DNA of 13,657 bases from a virus, in the UHGV virus genome UHGV-0069434. One strand, 5' to 3'. The notes beneath the pieces were generated by a model that was not told the origin of the DNA, did not search any database, and saw only the letters and a list, made by a program, of their open reading frames with translations. This document shows positions 5,329-13,657 of the stretch, piece after piece; the first letter of the stretch is position 1; each line of letters opens with the position of its first letter. The translations under genes were made by a program, and so were the position numbers.

Positions 5329-6175
5329 ATTAACCGGCTATGTATGGGATGGTTGCGCTGCGTCAGGCATGAAATTATCCAGCGTGGCAATTATGGCCCG
5401 CCTGGCTGATTTCAGTAATGACGAAGGTGTGTGCTGGCCATCAATTGAAACTATTGCCCGTCAGATTGGCGCGGGGATGAGTACCGTCAGAACGGCTATC
5501 GCACGGCTGGAAGCAGAAGGCTGGTTAACGCGTAAGGCGCGTCGCCAGGGTAACCGCAATGCGTCGAATGTTTATCAGCTTAACGTTGCGAAGCTTCAGG
5601 CAGCGGCATTTTCTCAACTGTCAGATTCTGACCCGTCAAAATCTGACGCATCAAAATCTGACACGTCAAAATTTGATGTGTCGAAATCTGGCAAAAAAGC
5701 GGGTTTTCACCCGTCAGAATCTGGCGGGGATCCGTCAGTAAAATCAAAACAAGATCCACAAGTAACTTCAAAACCCTCTTGTCCGGTTGCGGCGCAACCC
5801 GACCCTGAAGTTGTGATTACCGACCAGGCAATTTTGGTTCTGACCCATTTGAACCAGATCAGCGGATCCCGGTATCAGAAATCAAAAACATCCCTGGAGA
5901 ACATCCGCGCCCGACTGCGTGAGGGATACAGCGTTGCAGACCTGCAACTCGTTATCGACCTGAAGCATGAGCACTGGCACGAGAACGACGAGCAGTACCA
6001 GTACATGCGGCCGGAAACGCTGTTTGGCCCGAAGAAATTCGAGAGCTATCTGCAAAGCGCTACCCGCTGGGATCAGAAGGGACGGCCTAAACGCGCTGAC
6101 TGGGGTGCGAAAAAGCGCGATGTGATGGCTTTTGGTCCGGTTGATACAACGATTCCAGAGGGGTTCAGAGGATGA
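5318..6175 (+). CDS. Phage replication initiator / replisome organiser (lambda O-like role), 285 aa
   Basis: N-terminal HTH-like region (VAIMARLADFSNDEGVCWPSIETIARQIGAGMSTVRTAIARLEAEGWL). C-terminal region (LTHLNQISGSRYQKSKTSLENIRARLREGY...HEHWHENDEQYQYMRPETLFGPKKFESYLQSA) resembles the conserved phage replication-protein C-terminal domain. Tandem iterons lie inside the gene. Confidence 0.7.
   Translation: MSTKLTGYVWDGCAASGMKLSSVAIMARLADFSNDEGVCWPSIETIARQIGAGMSTVRTAIARLEAEGWLTRKARRQGNRNASNVYQLNVAKLQAAAFSQLSDSDPSKSDASKSDTSKFDVSKSGKKAGFHPSESGGDPSVKSKQDPQVTSKPSCPVAAQPDPEVVITDQAILVLTHLNQISGSRYQKSKTSLENIRARLREGYSVADLQLVIDLKHEHWHENDEQYQYMRPETLFGPKKFESYLQSATRWDQKGRPKRADWGAKKRDVMAFGPVDTTIPEGFRG
5621..5726. 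repeat. Tandem 15-bp iteron-like direct repeats (core GTCAAAATCTGAC), putative phage origin of replication inside the initiator gene
   Basis: Read directly: CCGTCAAAATCTGAC (5633..5647), GCATCAAAATCTGAC (5648..5662), ACGTCAAAATTTGAT (5663..5677), GTGTCGAAATCTGGC (5678..5692), plus partial copies at 5621..5632 and 5711..5725. Each core has internal dyad symmetry (GTCA...TGAC). The repeats encode SKSD-type peptide repeats and generate the repetitive ORF artefacts at 5559..5771. Confidence 0.55.
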
Positions 6176-7071
6176 CGTTAAACAAATATTGCCAGGCGCT
6201 GGCGGCACTACGTAGCAAACCAGCCCACCAACTGAAAGAAGTTGGCGATCAGTGGCGGACGCCGGATCTGCTTTTTTGGGGGATCAACGCGCTATTTGGT
6301 CCATTAGTTTTGGACTTGTTTGCAGACGACGACAACGCGAAATGCCCGGTATGGTACACCGCCGAAGATAACGCGCTGGTGCAGGATTGGGCGGAAATGT
6401 TGGATTCAATCGGCGGGGCCGCATTCGGTAATCCACCCTATAGCCGCTCTCAGTACCACGAGAAACAGGCGATCACCGGCATGACCCACATCATGGATCA
6501 CACAATGGAGATGCGTGAAAAGGGTGGGCGTTATGTGTTCCTCATTAAAGCGGCGACAAGTGAAACATGGTGGCCGGAAGACGCCGATCACATCATGTTT
6601 ATTCGCGGTCGCATTGGTTTCGATCTCCCTGTGTGGTTTGTTCCTGCCGACGATAAGCAGAAACCCACAGGTGCTTTCTTTGCTGGTGCAATCGCTTTGT
6701 TCGACAAGACCTGGCGCGGCGAGCGTTTCAGCTACATCAGCCGTACCGATCTGGAGGAAAAAGGGAAGGCGTTTATGTCACTGGTCGAATTTGCCGCGGG
6801 AAAGGTTCAGCCACCAGCCACCATGGTGCCAGAGCAAGAAGAACCCATTGTAGCGCCAGCAGTATTACCTGATGTGGATTCGCGTATCTGGCCGCTTGAG
6901 GTTGGTCTGGTGTTCAACCAGGTTGAGGGGGCGGATTCTCTGGACGCATCGCAGCAGAACAAGCTGAAAGCGAACATTAACCAGCTGTGGCTTGAGCGTA
7001 TGCCAACCAGCGAAATCATTACTACTGCTGGTGGACTGGTCAGCAGCATGCAGGGGGCCATCAATGCGTGA
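6172..7071 (+). CDS. Phage-type N6-adenine DNA methyltransferase (phage Dam family), 299 aa
   Basis: LDLFADDDNAKCPVWYTAEDNALVQDWAEM...FGNPPYSRS matches the phage N6A-methyltransferase family signature including the NPPY catalytic motif. ATGA overlap with the replication gene stop. About 100 aa of C-terminal extension beyond the usual domain size. Corresponds in position to the yfdM fragment of CPS-53. Confidence 0.8.
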   Translation: MTLNKYCQALAALRSKPAHQLKEVGDQWRTPDLLFWGINALFGPLVLDLFADDDNAKCPVWYTAEDNALVQDWAEMLDSIGGAAFGNPPYSRSQYHEKQAITGMTHIMDHTMEMREKGGRYVFLIKAATSETWWPEDADHIMFIRGRIGFDLPVWFVPADDKQKPTGAFFAGAIALFDKTWRGERFSYISRTDLEEKGKAFMSLVEFAAGKVQPPATMVPEQEEPIVAPAVLPDVDSRIWPLEVGLVFNQVEGADSLDASQQNKLKANINQLWLERMPTSEIITTAGGLVSSMQGAINA

Positions 7072-9457: not shown

Positions 9458-10144
9458 ATGAGCCAGTTAATCGTGAATGGTGTTGTAACAATGTCCAGCC
9501 GTGATATTGCGGATCTGGTTCAGAGTAAACACAGTGACGTGAAACGCTCGGCTGAGCGTCTTGTTGCTGCGGGAATTTTAACCGCGCCGTTGGCGCAGTT
9601 CGATTTTGAGCATAACGGTAATGTTTACCAGGAGTATCGTTTTAACAAACGCGACTCTCTGGTGATTGTTGCCAGACTGTCACCTGAATTTACCGCCGCG
9701 GTTGTCGATCGCTGGCAGGAACTGGAAGAAGGGCAGAGTGTCAGTGTTCCCCGCTCATTGCCGGAAGCGCTTCGCCTGGCTGCTGATTTAGCCGAGCAGA
9801 AAGAGCAACTGACCATCCAGCTGGCAGCTGCGGCGCCAAAAGTGGAGTTTGTTGATCGTTATTGCTCTGCAAAAGGCTCCATGTCATTCCGGCAGGTAGC
9901 CAAATTGCTCAACGCAAAAGAAACTGAGTTCCGCCTGTTCCTTATTGAACGCAATATCCTGTATCGCCTCGGCGGCACACTTACCCCTATGGCGCAGCAC
10001 ATTTCCGCGGGAAGATTTGAAGTTAAGACGGGAACATCGAGCACATCCAATCACGCATTTAGCCAGACGCGTTTCACTGCCAAGGGAGTACGCTGGATTG
10101 GTGGTTTGTGGGCTGAACATATTGCAGGGGGACAGGCGGCGTGA
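9458..10144 (+). CDS. Phage antirepressor, 228 aa: Rha-type N-terminal domain plus KilA-C/ANT C-terminal domain
   Basis: N-terminus VTMSSRDIADLVQSKHSDVKRSAERL...YRFNKRDSLVIVARLSPEF is typical of Rha; C-terminus FRQVAKLLNAKETEFRLFLIERNILYRLGG is KilA-C-like. Start at ATG 9458 (GGAG 6 nt upstream) preferred over track start 9419. Confidence 0.75.
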   Translation: MSQLIVNGVVTMSSRDIADLVQSKHSDVKRSAERLVAAGILTAPLAQFDFEHNGNVYQEYRFNKRDSLVIVARLSPEFTAAVVDRWQELEEGQSVSVPRSLPEALRLAADLAEQKEQLTIQLAAAAPKVEFVDRYCSAKGSMSFRQVAKLLNAKETEFRLFLIERNILYRLGGTLTPMAQHISAGRFEVKTGTSSTSNHAFSQTRFTAKGVRWIGGLWAEHIAGGQAA

Positions 10145-11136
10145 GGGCTTTGTTAACTCCTGAAGTCGCCCATCGTATGGGGATTGTGTTGTTTCGTCCC
10201 GGCGCGGAACTGATGCACCTCTTCATGCGTGGTCGCGTTCTGCTCGAGCCTGAACCAGAAGAAATGGCGTCATTCAGTACAGGGGCTGTTCCCGCCGCCA
10301 TTCAGACGCTGGCTGATGATCCGGTAATGCGGCAGGTCTTCGGGAATGAGCGGGTTATTCAGCGTGCCGGTGGGCTTCCTTCCCTTGAGCAGTGGCTGAG
10401 TTCTCGGTTTGAATGCCAGTGGCCACATTCATCGTGGCACGACAAGAATTTCACAACAATGCGGCACCCACCAGGAAGTATTCGCCTGTGCTGGCATTGC
10501 GATCACACTTTGTCGGGGCAGCATACCGAACAGCTTGCAGGTATAGCGGCAGGAAACCTGGTATCCTGGATTCTGGAAGTCATTCGGCGTGATTCTGGTT
10601 TTCCCGAGTCGCATATCCTGACGCTTCCGGAACTGTGCTGGTGGATGGTCAGAAACGACCTGGCTGATGTTATTCCGGAAAGCGTTGCGCACAAGGGGTT
10701 ACGCCTTCCGGATGAGAAGATCCGCTCGGTCATGAGGGAAAGCGACATTGTGCCTTCCGCTTCTGCAACCAGCCTAGTGCAGGAGAAGGCGAAGAAGATC
10801 CTCACGCTCTCTGTTGATCCGGAGTCTCCAGAATCTTTCATGCTCAGGCCAAAGCGACGCCGCTGGATAAATGAGACTTACACCCGCTGGGTTAAAACAC
10901 AACCCTGTGAGTGTTGCCGACGGCCAGCCGATGATCCGCACCATATCGTAGGGCACGGTATGGGGGGGACAGCAACAAAAGCCCATGATCTCTTCGTGAT
11001 CCCTCTGTGCAGAGAGTGCCACGACGAGTTACACGCCGATGTACCGGCATTCGAGCAGAAGCATGGTACGCAGCTTGAGCTGCTACTGCGTTTTATGGAT
11101 CGGGCGCTGGCGATCGGCGTAATTGCGAAAGCTTAA
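10141..11136 (+). CDS. Phage protein with C-terminal Cys/His-rich HNH-like nuclease motif (DUF968-like), 331 aa
   Basis: GTG start overlapping the previous stop (GTGA). C-terminus CECCRRPADDPHHIVGHGMGG...LCRECHDELH is a zinc-binding HNH-like signature. Sits where nin-region nucleases are found in lambdoid phages. Confidence 0.6.
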   Translation: MRALLTPEVAHRMGIVLFRPGAELMHLFMRGRVLLEPEPEEMASFSTGAVPAAIQTLADDPVMRQVFGNERVIQRAGGLPSLEQWLSSRFECQWPHSSWHDKNFTTMRHPPGSIRLCWHCDHTLSGQHTEQLAGIAAGNLVSWILEVIRRDSGFPESHILTLPELCWWMVRNDLADVIPESVAHKGLRLPDEKIRSVMRESDIVPSASATSLVQEKAKKILTLSVDPESPESFMLRPKRRRWINETYTRWVKTQPCECCRRPADDPHHIVGHGMGGTATKAHDLFVIPLCRECHDELHADVPAFEQKHGTQLELLLRFMDRALAIGVIAKA

Positions 11137-11847
11137 GTGTATGGAGCGCAAAGAAGCATGAATCAACAAGATCTGAATTTTGTAAGAATAGAATTGCGCC
11201 ACGCGCTACCTGACCTCTCTGGGGGAACAAAAGGGCAGCTTGAGGCTTTCAGTGAACACCCACCAGCAGACAAAAATGCCACCCCGCGCCGTGGAATTCA
11301 TCTCGTCGAACTCGAAGGAGAGAAGGGGCCACGCTTTGTTAACTCGCTTTCCGCGCCACTGTATGTGATGGAAACACGCAGCCGCCGCAGGCCAATGCCG
11401 CCGATAAAAGATGCGGAATTTGAGTCAGCGCCGTGGCGTAGGGCAGTGTCCGCGCTTAGTGGATACCAGCAGGCCTGGTTGCGGTACTGCTACGGTTTTG
11501 ACCTTAGCTATAAGCACCAGGTGATGATGTGTGAATACGTCTGGAAAACTTATCAGAAATGCCTGGGTGATAACTCGCTTCAGGAGCGCGTAGTAAAGAA
11601 ACTGATAGGCCTGGTATGGCTGGCAGGGCAGGAAATTGCCGCAACCAGAAATAATGAAACCTATAAAGACTATGCTGGTGCAGCGTTGGCCCGCATGGTT
11701 AGCGTTGACCGTTCGACATGGTTGCGTGTCTATTCAGGCCACTGGGCTGGGTTAAAGACCGCTTTTACGCAGCTTGATGAATCTGCGTTGACCATGGCTC
11801 TTGAATACTATGAGGAAGAAGAAGCCCTCAAAGTGGCAGAAATGTGA
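11137..11847 (+). CDS. Putative late-gene antiterminator (Q-like by position), 236 aa
   Basis: Last gene of the rightward early operon, immediately followed by a promoter-like region and a strong intrinsic terminator, which is the Q / PR' / tR' arrangement. No sequence motif recognised with confidence; an alternative ATG start lies at 11158. Confidence 0.45.
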   Translation: MYGAQRSMNQQDLNFVRIELRHALPDLSGGTKGQLEAFSEHPPADKNATPRRGIHLVELEGEKGPRFVNSLSAPLYVMETRSRRRPMPPIKDAEFESAPWRRAVSALSGYQQAWLRYCYGFDLSYKHQVMMCEYVWKTYQKCLGDNSLQERVVKKLIGLVWLAGQEIAATRNNETYKDYAGAALARMVSVDRSTWLRVYSGHWAGLKTAFTQLDESALTMALEYYEEEEALKVAEM

Positions 11848-11869
11848 AGTAAATTTCACTATCTCCTTC

Positions 11870-11930
11870 AAACGCGCTTGCAAAATGCAACAAAATAAGC
11901 CATATTTAAAGCATATTTGATATGTTGCCA
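11870..11930 (+). promoter_or_regulatory. Candidate late promoter (PR'-like), possibly with a Q-utilisation site
   Basis: -35-like TTGCAA at 11878..11883 with A/T-rich -10 candidates downstream (CATATT, TATTTA, TATTTG); exact hexamers are ambiguous. Positional inference. Confidence 0.3.
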
Positions 11931-11939
11931 ATGGTTTAT

Positions 11940-11966
11940 AAACCCGCCGATGAGCGGGTTTTTTTA
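11940..11966 (+). terminator. Rho-independent terminator (tR'-like): AAACCCGC-cgatga-GCGGGTTT followed by a T-run
   Basis: Read directly: GC-rich stem 11942..11947 / 11954..11959 with 6-nt loop, then TTTTTTT to about 11965. Confidence 0.7.
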
Positions 11967-12087
11967 TGGCAAATCAGCCATGCACGGCGCATAAAGGCGC
12001 TGGCGGTCGCAGAATGGAATTCTTCTCTTGCTGGTATCACCAACCAGAGTTATCTGTATGTCACGCAACTAATTTTAGGTAAAAGAC

Positions 12088-12279
12088 ATGCTAAATCAGG
12101 AAGATATGACAGAAACGGCAAAGGCTGTTTTCAATGAATTAAGCGATAAACCAGCAACGGCCGGGGAGATTGCACTGAATACCCACCTCAGCCGCGAACG
12201 TTGCCAGCTCATACTTACGCAGCTGGTGATGGCGGGTTTATCTGATTACCAGTTTGGGTGTTATAAACGCCTCCAGTAA
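12088..12279 (+). CDS. Small hypothetical protein, 63 aa (57 aa from the alternative ATG at 12106), possibly DNA-binding
   Basis: ORF track. AGGT 7 nt before ATG 12088, and AGGAAG 4-5 nt before the second ATG at 12106. Helix-rich sequence AGEIALNTHLSRERCQLILTQLVMAGL. No homology check possible. Confidence 0.4.
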   Translation: MLNQEDMTETAKAVFNELSDKPATAGEIALNTHLSRERCQLILTQLVMAGLSDYQFGCYKRLQ

Positions 12280-12306
12280 TGGGGGCTTTCTGCTGTGGAA
12301 ATGGGC

Positions 12307-12337
12307 GGCTGGTGGGTGTTAGCGCACCCGGCCAGCC
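12307..12337 (+). other. Stable GC-rich stem-loop (about 12-bp stem with one bulge, 6-nt loop) in the 5' leader of the methyltransferase gene
   Basis: GGCTGGTGGGTG-ttagcg-CACCCGGCCAGCC read directly; no following U-tract on either strand. Confidence 0.4.
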
Positions 12338-12429
12338 ATCAGCTCATGCTTTCAGGTCACAAGCTAACCAAGGCCCACTGCTTTAGCGCAAAAGCAACGT
12401 GAGCCTATCAGAGTTACGCTTACTGATCT

Positions 12430-13482
12430 ATGAAAAATACTGTAAAAATAAACAGTGTTGAGTTAATCAACGCTGATAGCCTGCATTACGTCGCCACCCT
12501 CCCGGATAACTCTATTGATCTGATAGTTACGGATCCTCCGTACTTCAAAGTGAAGCCCAACGGCTGGGACAACCAATGGAAGGGGGACGAGGACTACTTA
12601 CGCTGGCTTGATAGCTGCCTGGCTGAGTATGCTCGCGTTCTTAAACCTGCTGGCAGCATCTACCTGTTTTGCGGTCATCGACTGGCCTCAGACATAGAGA
12701 TTATGATGCGTGCCCGGTTCAACATTTTGAATCACATCATCTGGGCAAAGCCATCGGGCCGCTGGAATGGTTGTAACAAAGAAAGCCTGCGCGCGTATTT
12801 TCCATCAACGGAACGGATTTTGTTTGCTGAGCACTATCTTGGGCCGTACACAGGTAAAGAGGATGTTTACGAAAGGAAAAGCACAGAGCTAAAGCAGCAT
12901 CTTATGACGCCACTGATTGACTACTTCCGTAATGCCCGTGAATCACTGGGTGTCAGCTCGAAAGAAATAGCTGAGGCAACCGGAAAGAAAAACATGGCGT
13001 CACACTGGTTTGGTGCAAGCCAATGGCAACTACCAAATGAAGTGGACTATAGAAAATTGCAGGAACTGTTCACGAGGATCGCTATCGATAAGCACATTCA
13101 GCAGAAGCTTGAACATCCTCACCACCAGCTGGTAGCCACCTATCAGTCATTAAACCGCAAGTATTCAGAATTGCTGGAGGAATACAAAACCCTCCGGCGC
13201 TGCTTCTCTGTTTCCGTTCTTGTTCCGTATACCGACGTATGGACGCATAAGCCTGTTCAGTTTTATCCAGGCAAACATCCATGCGAAAAACCTGCCGACA
13301 TGCTGAAGCAGATCATTAGCGCCAGCAGCAGACCGGGGGATATCGTTGCCGATTTCTTTATGGGCTCTGGTTCAACTGTGAAAGCTGCAATAGAACTTGG
13401 TCGTCGGGCGATCGGCGTAGAACTGGAAACCGACAGGTTTATTCAAACCACCGAAGAGGTGGAAAAACTCAACAAAACATAA
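12430..13482 (+). CDS. Beta-class amino-methyltransferase, probably N6-adenine (motif IV before motif I), 350 aa
   Basis: N-terminal SIDLIVTDPPYF (DPPY motif IV) and C-terminal DIVADFFMGSGSTVKAA (FxGxG AdoMet motif I), with a roughly 200-aa intervening target-recognition region. Weak SD at the ATG. Confidence 0.8.
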   Translation: MKNTVKINSVELINADSLHYVATLPDNSIDLIVTDPPYFKVKPNGWDNQWKGDEDYLRWLDSCLAEYARVLKPAGSIYLFCGHRLASDIEIMMRARFNILNHIIWAKPSGRWNGCNKESLRAYFPSTERILFAEHYLGPYTGKEDVYERKSTELKQHLMTPLIDYFRNARESLGVSSKEIAEATGKKNMASHWFGASQWQLPNEVDYRKLQELFTRIAIDKHIQQKLEHPHHQLVATYQSLNRKYSELLEEYKTLRRCFSVSVLVPYTDVWTHKPVQFYPGKHPCEKPADMLKQIISASSRPGDIVADFFMGSGSTVKAAIELGRRAIGVELETDRFIQTTEEVEKLNKT

Positions 13483-13625
13483 CGATCATCACGCTCCCTG
13501 TTGCTGTGGTGATCACCATTTTCAGGCACCGGGAATCATCCTTACTTTTAATTGAACAAAAGAGCCCGGTTGCCTGATCCCCTCCAATCACACACAGCGC
13601 CATCCGAAAAATCGGAGGTGAGGCT

Positions 13626-13657
13626 ATGACCAGAATGAGCACCATTTACAGCAGACT
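13626..13657 (+). CDS. Start of next gene (partial, MTRMSTIYSR...), function unknown
   Basis: ATG at 13626 preceded by GGAGGTGAGG. Only 10 codons are in the window. Confidence 0.3.
   Translation, partial: MTRMSTIYSR

Follow-up and report, generated by a model that had tools for sequence, protein, structure and literature searches.

Introduction

M.EcoGII, an adenine methyltransferase that acts irrespective of sequence context, is a widely used tool for the mapping of chromatin and RNA. M.EcoGII and M.EcoGI are borne by prophages of E. coli O104:H4 C227-11 (Murray et al. 2018, PMC5778455), and the sections of that paper used here describe M.EcoGII as silent in the lysogen and deleterious if expressed, interpret it as an anti-restriction function, and report that M.EcoGI is also silent in uninduced cells as judged from SMRT methylomes. 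For homologs of M.EcoGII in O111 STEC, no methylation motif was detectable without induction (PMC6602927). Biochemical work found no sequence motif for M.EcoGII, Anc291 and SUPREM, and the six reconstructed ancestors that were tested all had DNA as well as RNA methylation activity (PMC11551740). The portions of the M.EcoGII literature considered here contain no description of the control of the natural gene, nor do they describe an upstream leader or a small winged-helix gene.

The locus discussed in this paper belongs to the virus genome UHGV-0069434, and the whole stretch of DNA that was analysed, 13,657 nucleotides in length, is referred to as the window. Its right-hand part is probably where the Q-dependent late operon of a lambdoid prophage begins, and in it a leader would gate the translation of an M.EcoGII-type methyltransferase (MTase) gene.

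Organization of the late region

The gene order, read 5' to 3', is a Q82-family antiterminator, a strong intrinsic terminator, an ORF for a 63-aa winged-helix (wH) protein, a spacer of 150 nt, the MTase and a holin (Table 1). All elements listed in the original prediction for this region are present where it had placed them, whereas its interpretation of them stands only in part.

Table 1 Features of the late region, with positions in the window
Feature	Position	Strand	Basis or description
Q antiterminator gene, phage-82 Q family	11137..11847	+	PF06323, PHROG 304, phage 82 Q homology
Candidate late promoter PR'	11878..11906	+	-35 TTGCAA 11878-83, 17-nt spacer, -10 CATATT 11901-06
Intrinsic terminator (tR'-like)	11940..11968	+	Terminator scan; AAACCCGCCGATGAGCGGGTTT followed by T run
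63-aa wH protein gene (phrog_331, function unknown)	12088..12279	+	276 homologs, PHROG, AF2 model
Hairpin H0, wH stop codon in loop, then U-rich tract	12269..12296	+	Terminator scan
Conserved structured leader	12293..12429	+	Conservation, compensatory changes, fixed ATG distance
Leader segment A	12301-06		
Leader segment P1	12307-37		
Chi octamer in leader P1	12308-12315		
Leader segment B	12338-47		
Leader segment C	12355-67		
Leader segment P3	12372-12405		
Leader segment D	12418-28		
Beta-class N6-adenine DNA methyltransferase gene, M.EcoGII ortholog	12430..13482	+	PF01555; identity to M.EcoGII, Anc291, SUPREM
Small hairpin within MTase codons 4-9	12439..12456	+	ACTGT-N8-ACAGT; 49-relative alignment, first 96 nt of CDS
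Holin gene start	13626..13657	+	Cut by window end; inferred from contig L004

The identification of the first gene as an antiterminator gene is borne out by matches of its product to Pfam PF06323 (E=1.2e-36, 126.9 bits, with a curated cut-off of 25) and to PHROG 304, 'anti-termination protein Q-like' (E=1e-71), as well as by homology to Q of phage 82 (tblastn, 31.6% identity over 90% of the length, E=1e-29); a PDB sequence search gave no solved structure related to it. The strong terminator that had been predicted downstream of this gene is equally clear, as it consists of an 8-bp stem (5 G-C) at 11940-11961 and then a T7 run, and the same hairpin occurs downstream of Q in SfV, the record of which annotates a rho-independent terminator there. 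The promoter-like region that had been noted after Q fares less well: TTGCAA-17-CATATT is present, and its conservation extends to phiNP, whose Q is of the same type, and not to SfV, whose Q is of a different type, but it is the weakest element of the locus, scoring 8/12, which is below the threshold of the consensus scan, so that the scan missed it. From its sequence and position it may be the late promoter PR'. A 71-aa ORF that extends across the terminator (11922-12137) has no family match and is probably spurious.

Transcription from the PR'-like promoter would halt at the tR'-like terminator unless a phage-82-family Q modified the RNA polymerase. After induction, read-through would lead in turn into the wH gene, the hairpin that holds its stop codon, the leader of about 135 nt, the MTase and the lysis genes. 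A scan limited to sigma-70 consensus sites found no sigma-70-like promoter between 11967 and 12429. This anatomy, with no promoter and with a second hairpin, together with the inactivity of the published homologs in uninduced cells, would fit Q-dependent late expression of the MTase.

What had looked like the next late gene is a holin gene, to judge from synteny with contig L004, in which an identical MTase occurs in the same gene order and is followed by genes for a holin (PF16080/PF04971), a lysozyme and Rz. The suggested insertion slot also exists, since the locus occupies the variable interval between Q/tR' and the lysis genes; in phiES15, which has a Q82-type Q, this slot holds a kinase/phosphatase pair. 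No tRNA genes of the kind present in Stx phages were found. The proposal that the slot is the position occupied by stx does not agree with the related phages, because the phiP27 module is located upstream of tRNAs and stx2e, and in Stx2c phages, too, the MTase is present with the spacer in front of it. The module of small ORF, spacer and MTase co-occurs with stx and does not replace it.

The methyltransferase

The protein is a beta-class MTase, as had been proposed, with a match to PF01555 (N6_N4_Mtase, E=1.4e-43) and with the motif order of that class, DPPY at residues 35-38 (motif IV) preceding FFMGSGS near residue 310 (motif I). When compared with the M.EcoGII-family sequences of PMC11551740 (Suppl. 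Table S1), it is 75% identical to M.EcoGII over 348 aligned residues with 2 gaps, which covers the full length including the central target-recognition region, 83% identical to the active ancestor Anc291 and 70% identical to SUPREM/Anc284. Bracketed in this way by enzymes with 70-83% identity, the MTase is predicted to act without sequence specificity. It is an orphan enzyme in a prophage context: its neighbours are the wH gene and the holin gene, and there is no adjacent REase gene. Most likely the enzyme would methylate adenines of replicating phage DNA without sequence preference, and the methylated progeny genomes would resist many host restriction systems.

Since such an enzyme damages the cell, the lysogen has to keep it off, and three layers of silencing would act at this locus, namely two serial terminators, the lack of an own promoter and a start site without a Shine-Dalgarno (SD) sequence. 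The sequence before the ATG, ...CTTACTGATCTATG, is indeed devoid of a purine-rich SD. Synonymous sites in MTase codons 1-9 are frozen among 49 relatives, in which the small hairpin within codons 4-9 is conserved. The same leader and wH gene are found upstream of an E. albertii gene (L145) that is 95% identical to that of M.EcoGII.

Conservation of the leader

The leader is more conserved than the MTase coding sequence in 222 of 228 loci, and among 45 unique upstream sequences it hardly varies, in contrast with the divergent coding DNA. It is kept where the wH gene is missing or displaced. Copies were recovered by nhmmer and by pattern scans, and the distance to the MTase ATG is fixed at 53-56 nt in all 118 independently sampled copies found by pattern (118/118); among copies with sufficient sequence downstream, only one departs from this, and it is the remnant of a deletion. 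Among 5426 complete E. coli genomes, 2637 (about half) contain the leader, which in E. coli Nissle 1917 is identical to the one described here, and a reduced form, with P1 plus flanks only, occurs in Xenorhabdus and Photorhabdus. The original prediction treated this most conserved part of the locus as a spacer with a stem-loop and overlooked its conservation.

No family in Rfam 15 matches the leader at gathering scores, and at E<=10 the only matches are terminator-driven ones at 11873-11973 and a spurious minus-strand miRNA match. Literature searches for the exact leader sequence, or for an sRNA or the leader of a methylase in the late regions of lambdoid phages, gave nothing relevant.

Two other readings of the spacer were rejected. 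An ORF of 33 codons (MGGWWV..., from the ATG at 12301) is interrupted by 1-nt indels in phiP27, phiNP, L042 and L058, has no SD, and has its AUG changed to GUG or missing in Serratia and Xenorhabdus. Such a spacer ORF is annotated in phage Eeyore, probably as an artefact. The sequence GGCGGCTGGTGG resembles an RfaH ops element at 7 of 10 specified positions when compared by eye, and this resemblance is lost in other genera.

Structure and possible function of the leader

The stable stem-loop that had been pointed out in the spacer (P1) withstands comparative analysis, with compensatory changes on both sides in 9 of its 12 pairs among 49 non-redundant relatives. In P3, 5 pairs changed on both sides, and the P2 pair at columns 52:76 is C-G in 26 sequences, A-U in 13, U-G in 6 and U-A in 3, with none unpaired. 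In a further helix, C:D, pairing reaches 94% and two pairs have changed on both sides; this helix shares columns 72-75 with P2. No pair in A:B changed on both sides, and P0 has one compensatory change only. In the controls, none of 500 shuffles reached the observed values in any model, and slid alignments gave 26-41% pairing versus the 88-94% observed. Directly 5' of the MTase ORF there is a structure supported by covariation, as is characteristic of riboswitch-like leaders.

The alignment accommodates, about equally well, at least three fold models that partly exclude one another. A static three-way junction with a pseudoknot is no worse a fit than a switch between the mutually exclusive helices C:D and P2. 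In many representatives two folds are near-isoenergetic (median difference -1.9 kcal/mol). From one lineage to another the OFF/ON energy balance takes values between -10 and +17 kcal/mol, a spread that is unexpected for a finely tuned switch. In Serratia the AUG itself lies inside segment D.

On the sense RNA the leader would be a cis-acting element. Segment C (GGUCACAAGC) would pair with segment D (GCUUACUGAUC), which immediately precedes the AUG, and would hide the initiation region, whereas formation of the alternative helix B:C (P2) would free it, by which translation would be gated. We tentatively propose that the block of about 135 nt before M.EcoGII-family genes could be an undescribed regulatory RNA family, acting either as a sense leader gate or as a sense/antisense pair. 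In the sense form, it is possible that a three-way junction with a pseudoknot, or a switch, gates translation of a toxic, non-specific MTase, and the trigger might be SAM or SAH, the adjacent wH protein, or altered RNA folding under a Q-modified polymerase. The sense strand is a provisional assignment, and of all parts of the model the translational gating is the most conditional.

The strand deserves attention, since the element could also be, or additionally encode, a cis-antisense RNA on the minus strand, which would begin close to the start codon of the MTase, traverse P3, P2 and P1 in that order and pair with leaky MTase mRNA in the lysogen, leading to a translation block or cleavage, as in type I toxin-antitoxin systems and P22 sar. 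We regard this as unlikely, although several properties of the alignment point to it. Read as the minus strand, the upper part of P2 is 100% paired; the plus-strand reading gives 43%, with A.C and C.A combinations in 84 cells that correspond to G.U on the minus strand. The lower part of P2 and P3 pair slightly better on the minus strand as well. The RNAalifold consensus energy is also lower for that strand (-31.7 versus -24.6 kcal/mol), and the minus strand is the more stable one in 33 of 49 single sequences. The frozen synonymous sites at the start of the MTase gene would suit an antisense RNA, as would the toxicity of the gene product described in the cited sections of PMC5778455. The sense strand, however, is favoured by G.U pairs in 51 cells of A:B and 44 cells of GGUCA:UGAUC, which become C.A mismatches on the minus strand. 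A weak promoter-like sequence on the minus strand, TCAACA-16-TATTTT, with its -10 element ending about 5 nt into the coding sequence, occurs in 33 of 49 relatives, but its score is 8/12 only, it falls within Lys/Asn codons rich in A/T, and the Rahnella and Yersinia types, in which the structure is kept, lack it. Moreover, the scans gave no minus-strand promoter or terminator at this site, and H0 read on the minus strand has no U tract in most E. coli-type loci.

The winged-helix protein and hairpin H0

The conservation of the small ORF, on which the original prediction depended, is well established: there are 276 homologs at E<=1e-3, of which the best 120 are at least 78% identical, and the protein matches phrog_331 with E=3e-31. 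Columns M1 and M7 are invariant, and the Met at codon 7 has the better SD. The only Pfam matches are sub-threshold ones to DprA_WH/TrmB, with no match to HTH_3. An AF2 model with a pLDDT of 91.5 has the topology H-H-H-beta-beta, which is that of a minimal winged helix. A fold search with this model returned only generic winged-helix matches (E about 1e-3), including the SECIS-RNA-binding wH domain of SelB, so that no functional assignment is possible.

The hairpin H0, in which the gene ends, is a weak terminator here and a canonical terminator in other genera, and its stem co-varies between loci. By eye, a GC-rich hairpin is present at this position in most of 49 relatives, including loci without the wH gene, with at least L015, L136 and L125 as exceptions; an automated count of U tracts at H0 across the relatives was unreliable.

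It has been suggested that the small protein is a controller-like regulator of the MTase. In a broader form of this idea, the wH protein would set the timing or level of MTase expression by binding either DNA or the leader RNA. The linkage of the two genes is strong and old, with the wH gene directly upstream in 109 of 112 sampled viral loci and in 57 of 80 species-level loci, including those of Xenorhabdus and Photorhabdus (42-49% identity). Furthermore, the stop codon lies in the H0 loop in the E. coli and Photorhabdus types, by which translation of the wH gene could open H0, and the winged-helix fold is predicted with confidence and has the RNA-binding wH domain of SelB among its matches. 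Nevertheless, we consider regulation by this protein improbable. The leader and MTase are kept without the wH gene in 20 of the 80 species-level loci and in about 11 of 80 viral loci, and in L006-L008 another ORF is interposed between the wH gene and the leader and MTase. A controller function in particular is not in agreement with a winged helix in place of an Xre-type HTH, with the lack of C-box-like inverted repeats upstream of the gene (none in 11960-12100), or with the lack of a restriction enzyme gene nearby, and the fold matches, at E values of only 1e-3, are generic, with no annotation going beyond a sub-threshold 'TrmB/DprA-like wH'. The wH protein is a frequent but dispensable companion of the MTase.

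Other explanations for the conserved block

Conservation of the block could in principle be due to its function as DNA, for example as a Chi-containing recombination or module-boundary sequence at which upstream cargo is exchanged while the MTase is kept. The 5' arm of P1 matches Chi at all eight positions, the window contains 11 Chi sites versus 0.52 expected, and similarity between loci with different upstream cargo starts exactly at the 5' edge of the block. In addition, L154 has a partial second copy (terminator, A and a P1-like element) before another cargo ORF, as if it were a recombination remnant. This explanation is very unlikely in view of the compensatory changes on both sides that maintain pairing in P1, P2 and P3, and of the many variants in which the hairpin is kept but Chi is lost (GGCTGGAGG, GGTTGGTGG and the Rahnella and Yersinia arms). 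A boundary sequence also needs no fixed distance to a start codon.

Least probable of all, to the point of being barely credible, is that the MTase, together with the small ORF, is a true moron that is expressed from its own promoter in the prophage, independently of Q, and alters the host methylome (lysogenic conversion): the Q-to-lysis interval is a known and variably filled moron site and atypical promoters would be invisible to a sigma-70 scan, but that scan shows nothing promoter-like from tR' to the MTase, two terminators stand in series, the start site lacks an SD and is inside conserved pairing, M.EcoGI, M.EcoGII and the O111 homologs are silent by SMRT in uninduced cells (PMC6602927 and the cited sections of PMC5778455), and the latter describe constitutive expression as deleterious. 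[quoted passage not shown]

Implications

The conserved leader with its SD-less start, and the usual wH companion with a stop codon in a terminator-like hairpin, provide a testable handle on the control of M.EcoGII-type genes. The leader is a very abundant candidate RNA motif, with thousands of copies in E. coli alone, and current annotation ignores it or mis-calls it as an ORF of 30 aa. If the interpretation as a regulatory RNA is true, it would explain why the enzyme is completely silent before lysis in the prophages of about half of the complete E. coli genomes. The locus itself is a standard late-operon module, and neither stx-like cargo nor a system controlled by a C protein.

Comparison with known systems

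Like M.EcoGII, the MTase described here is prophage-borne, and it is of near-equal length (350 versus 349 aa) with the same order of DPPY, central TRD and FxGxG. The two enzymes differ in 25% of their residues, and the activity of the protein described here is a prediction from this similarity. At the level of gene organization the closest relatives are SfV (orf47-orf48), phiP27 (L23-L24) and phiNP (phiNP_036-dam), which carry the same module with a DNA identity of 75-79%: Q, a terminator, a small wH ORF, a spacer of 149-150 nt and an MTase of about 350 aa. In SfV and phiNP the MTase is followed by lysis genes, as it is here. The Q of SfV is unrelated to the Q of this locus, whereas phiP27 differs in having a short Q plus a GIY-YIG gene, and in the insertion of tRNAs and stx2e between the MTase and the lysis genes.

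In restriction-modification systems the restriction gene is controlled by C proteins, which are dimers with an Xre-type HTH and recognise C-boxes. The wH protein resembles them as a small protein of a DNA-binding type whose gene directly precedes a methylase-related one, the expression of which it could in principle delay, but it differs in that it is a winged helix, that there is no repeat and no REase, and that the protein is dispensable. For the leader, possible functional parallels are the lambda cIII and hok mRNAs, of which translation is set by alternative leader structures. The likeness would lie in helices that cannot form together, one of them masking the initiation region of a gene whose product has to be kept within tight limits; there is no sequence or Rfam relationship, and the switch at the present locus is a proposal. 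Finally, as with lambda 6S RNA and StxS (PMC7547250), a PR'-tR' arrangement just after Q, in which a terminator stands close behind a constitutive late promoter, should here yield an RNA of about 55 nt (11913-11968). Such an RNA would cover these first 55 nt or so only, whereas the conserved leader is outside it, at a distance of 330 nt in the downstream direction.

Structured leader of the methyltransferase gene

The stretch between the gene of a small winged-helix protein (wH) and that of an M.EcoGII-type methyltransferase makes a strong candidate for a regulatory RNA element that is undescribed, very abundant and tied exclusively to genes of the M.EcoGII family. When the 200 nt 5' of the methyltransferase start were aligned for 45 unique loci, similarity was found to begin abruptly at CTGTGGAAATGGGCGG (about 12293), irrespective of what precedes it, and the sequence is nearly unchanged up to the ATG. 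This leader block is more conserved than the methyltransferase coding sequence in 222 of 228 loci, with median identities in the most distant class of 84% for the block, 76% for the wH gene and 73% for the methyltransferase. A pattern scan of viral contigs, in which the methyltransferase was not a criterion, gave 121 copies, of which 118 had a methyltransferase start 53–56 nt past the pattern; two others lie at contig ends, and the third carries a deletion. The latter is a decayed copy (L185, 2146–2460), with the leader, past GAGCCTATC, fused to the C-terminal third of the methyltransferase (EKPAEMLQQIISASS...).

By blastn, 2637 of the 5426 complete E. coli genomes carry the block, which occupies 3792 places in all, with a maximum of 8 per genome; E. 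coli Nissle 1917 has it at 100% identity. An annotated DNA methyltransferase always adjoins it, and the block itself is never annotated. Diverged leaders occur in Rahnella, Yersinia, Ewingella, Hafnia, Serratia, Lonsdalea, Symbiopectobacterium, Mixta and Plesiomonas. Photorhabdus and Xenorhabdus possess a reduced form: in the approximately 150 nt 5' of the methyltransferase (loci L092–L129) helices P2 and P3 are absent, the wH gene is kept, and the P1 hairpin with its flanks is retained in the sequences read. This natural minimal version could guide mutagenesis. Rfam 15 gave no match to the leader, either at gathering scores or with the cut-off relaxed to E ≤ 10, and full-text literature searches yielded neither its sequence nor a description.

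Table Features of the window and of the leader; pair changes were counted in 49 non-redundant sequences (alignment A3)
Feature	Position	Remarks
Dam-like N6-adenine methyltransferase	6172–7071	PF05869
C5-cytosine methyltransferase, 665–689 aa	6992–9061	PF00145
DUF968/HNH-like protein	10141–11136	directly 5' of Q
Q antiterminator, phage-82 family	11137–11847	PF06323, E = 1.2e-36; phrog_304, E = 1e-71
Promoter-like TTGCAA-17-CATATT	11878–11906	3' of Q; scores only 8/12
Intrinsic terminator, clear	11940–11961	followed by T7 run
wH gene, 63 aa	12088–12279	
GC-rich hairpin H0	12269–12286	wH stop codon in loop
Segment A (AUGGGC)	12301–12306	
P1	12307–12337	9/12 pairs changed on both sides
P2 (segment B with segment C)	12338–12347, 12355–12367	5/9 pairs changed on both sides
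P3	12372–12405	5 pairs changed on both sides
Segment D	12418–12428	
M.EcoGII-type methyltransferase, 350 aa	12430–13482	150-nt spacer after wH gene
Hairpin ACUGU-N8-ACAGU	12439–12456	methyltransferase codons 4–9; synonymous sites frozen
Next gene, start	13626	
Chi sites	618, 4620, 6811(-), 7027, 7091, 9004, 9360, 10637, 11260(-), 12308, 13122(-)	

The helices are marked by covariation, as illustrated by one P2 pair that is C-G in 26 sequences, A-U in 13, U-G in 6 and U-A in 3, and unpaired in none. The observed values were attained in 0 of 500 column shuffles for every fold model, and sliding the partners by 1–3 columns reduced pairing from 88–94% to 26–41%. Segment C also has an alternative partner in segment D, which ends 2 nt short of the AUG and in Serratia contains it; this helix is 94% paired, with two pairs changed on both sides. 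Segment A is 99% paired with B, with one-sided changes only, and 100% paired with GCCCA at the base of P3, with one compensatory change. The latter pairing would close a three-way junction, and the P2 loop could then contribute GGUC to a pseudoknot with the GAUC preceding the start. In many sequences the energies of the two main folds are nearly equal (median difference −1.9 kcal/mol), and their balance ranges between lineages from −10 to +17 kcal/mol. The methyltransferase start lacks a Shine–Dalgarno sequence (SD) and adjoins or falls within conserved pairing. In the small hairpin just inside the gene, the Thr and Ser codons hardly vary at their third positions from genus to genus, so this segment is constrained by more than coding.

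An upstream open reading frame in the leader was rejected, as indels occur, an SD is lacking and the AUG is lost in some genera. The 30-aa 'hypothetical protein' that GenBank places within the leader of Escherichia phage Eeyore (PP925821.1; L289, 5502–5594), in a non-conserved MGG... frame, is probably an annotation artefact. A partial second copy, consisting of terminator, GCTGTGAAGATGGGC and a degenerate P1, is found in Trabulsiella odontotermitis (L154, 1490–1581), ahead of another cargo ORF and some 850 nt 5' of the full leader, an arrangement that resembles an insertion of cargo by recombination within the leader.

Strand and expression

Because the evidence is split between the strands, a cis-antisense RNA transcribed from the minus strand is kept as the main rival to a leader on the sense strand. 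In the E. coli type the plus strand has A.C at the upper P2 pairs, and these are 100% paired on the minus strand versus 43% on the plus strand; RNAalifold gives −31.7 versus −24.6 kcal/mol. In 33 of 49 sequences the minus strand also has a weak promoter-like site whose −10 ends just within the coding sequence; the Rahnella and Yersinia types lack this site, and a search for a minus-strand terminator was negative. The sense strand is favoured by the constant distance from leader to methyltransferase start, by the direction in which U tracts follow H0, and by G.U pairs (51 cells in A:B, 44 in GGUCA:UGAUC).

The identity and order of the genes, the conservation and the covariation are shown, and we infer that methyltransferase expression depends on Q and is gated by the leader, with Q-dependent read-through followed by leader-limited translation as the most likely course. 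In the lysogen, transcription from PR' would stop at 11940–11968; upon induction, Q-modified polymerase would pass this terminator and then H0, and continue into the leader, the methyltransferase and the lysis genes, while the leader would probably limit or time translation of a cell-toxic methyltransferase. H0 is weak in the window, and is a canonical hairpin with a U6–7 tract in Rahnella, Yersinia and Lonsdalea; a conserved detail is that, in loci of the E. coli type, its loop holds the wH stop (CAG UAA UGG), and the equivalent loop of a Photorhabdus locus, L106, has UGA (CCC UGA UGG).

The product of the Q gene shares 31.6% identity with phage 82 Q across 90% of its length. A consensus promoter scan detected no promoter-like site between terminator and methyltransferase, and did not report the TTGCAA-17-CATATT stretch either. 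This stretch is kept in Citrobacter phage phiNP, whose Q is of the same type, and not in SfV, where Q is unrelated; such conservation along with Q type is the pattern expected of a Q/qut pair. The DUF968/HNH-like gene also directly precedes Q in SfV, annotated as 'HNH endonuclease', and in phiNP, mis-annotated there as a second Q. A 71-aa ORF (11922–12137) crossing the terminator into the wH gene in another frame has no family match and is probably not a gene.

Proteins of the module and Chi sites

The methyltransferase carries an N6_N4_Mtase domain (PF01555, E = 1.4e-43) with DPPY preceding FxGxG, the beta-class order, and is 75% identical over its full length to M.EcoGII (sequence from OCR text of Supplementary Table S1 of PMC11551740, in which a few residues may be wrong), 83% to the reconstructed ancestor Anc291 and 70% to SUPREM/Anc284. 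By homology and phylogenetic bracketing it thus appears to be an ordinary member of a known family. Methylation of DNA and RNA is reported for every ancestor tested, and no sequence motif for M.EcoGII, Anc291 or SUPREM (PMC11551740), which suggests non-specific activity of the window enzyme as well. According to Murray et al. (PMC5778455), M.EcoGII belongs to a very large prophage family and is unexpressed in the lysogen, deleterious once expressed and probably serves to overcome host restriction. For two M.EcoGI/GII homologs in O111 STEC, a methylation motif could not be detected during uninduced growth (PMC6602927). The window encodes three DNA methyltransferases, and the same trio occurs in unchanged order in phiNP.

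A search with the wH protein gave 276 homologs at E ≤ 1e-3, and identity is 78% or more among the best 120 listed. Most homologs carry the name 'TrmB family' or 'DprA-like winged helix', for which Pfam matches were below threshold. NCBIfam and PADLOC gave no match, and the protein falls in phrog_331, a PHROG of unknown function. AlphaFold2 predicts a confident minimal winged helix (pLDDT 91.5), for which Foldseek returned generic winged-helix domains only (E ~1e-3), such as O-methyltransferase N-terminal domains, the RNA-binding winged helix of SelB, IclR and MarR. The suggestion that it acts as a controller does not hold: it is not a C protein, as it has no Xre-type HTH, no inverted repeat upstream of its gene and no accompanying restriction gene. 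Its association with the methyltransferase is frequent and not obligatory. The wH gene is immediately 5' of leader and methyltransferase in 109 of 112 pattern-sampled viral loci, and is present in 57 of 80 species-level loci, including Xenorhabdus and Photorhabdus (42–49% identity); it is absent from 20 species-level and about 11 viral loci that retain leader and methyltransferase, their upstream neighbours being other cargo genes or Q itself. Two Met codons of the ORF are invariant, M1 (12088) and M7 (12106), and since the better SD precedes M7 (AGGAAGAT-ATG) the real product may be 57 aa rather than 63.

The window has 11 copies of the Chi octamer GCTGGTGG in its 13.6 kb, 8 of them on the plus strand, compared to an expectation of 0.52 by shuffling (at most 4 in any of 200 shuffles), and one copy forms the 5' arm of P1. 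This excess suggests selection for protection from RecBCD in the prophage concerned.

Comparison with other lambdoid phages

The window, from a metagenome contig (ENA ERZ773225 NODE_3602), covers the early-right/late junction of a lambdoid prophage. All elements that the original prediction had observed (Q gene, terminator, 63-aa ORF, spacer stem-loop, methyltransferase, late gene at 13626) were confirmed, and its stem-loop is P1; the locus as described there is an ordinary, largely known module. Its interpretation failed on the controller and on the stx position, and the spacer with its stem-loop emerged as the regulatory RNA candidate. In a contig with identical methyltransferase and gene order (L004), the gene matching that at 13626 is a holin, followed by lysozyme and Rz; in two other contigs (L006, L007) the identical methyltransferase protein is accompanied by additional genes and a Q of another family (PF06530). 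What lies between Q and the lysis genes does vary, and in phiES15, with a Q82-type Q, this slot holds a Ser/Thr kinase and a PP2C phosphatase instead. SfV has, as the window, Q, terminator, small ORF, spacer and methyltransferase (orf47/orf48) and then holin, and the module of small ORF, spacer and methyltransferase also occurs in phiNP and phiP27 (L23/L24), with a spacer of 149–150 nt in all three. In phiP27, tRNA genes and stx2e are inserted behind the methyltransferase, and Stx2c phages carry the methyltransferase together with its upstream spacer; therefore the module does not occupy the position of stx.
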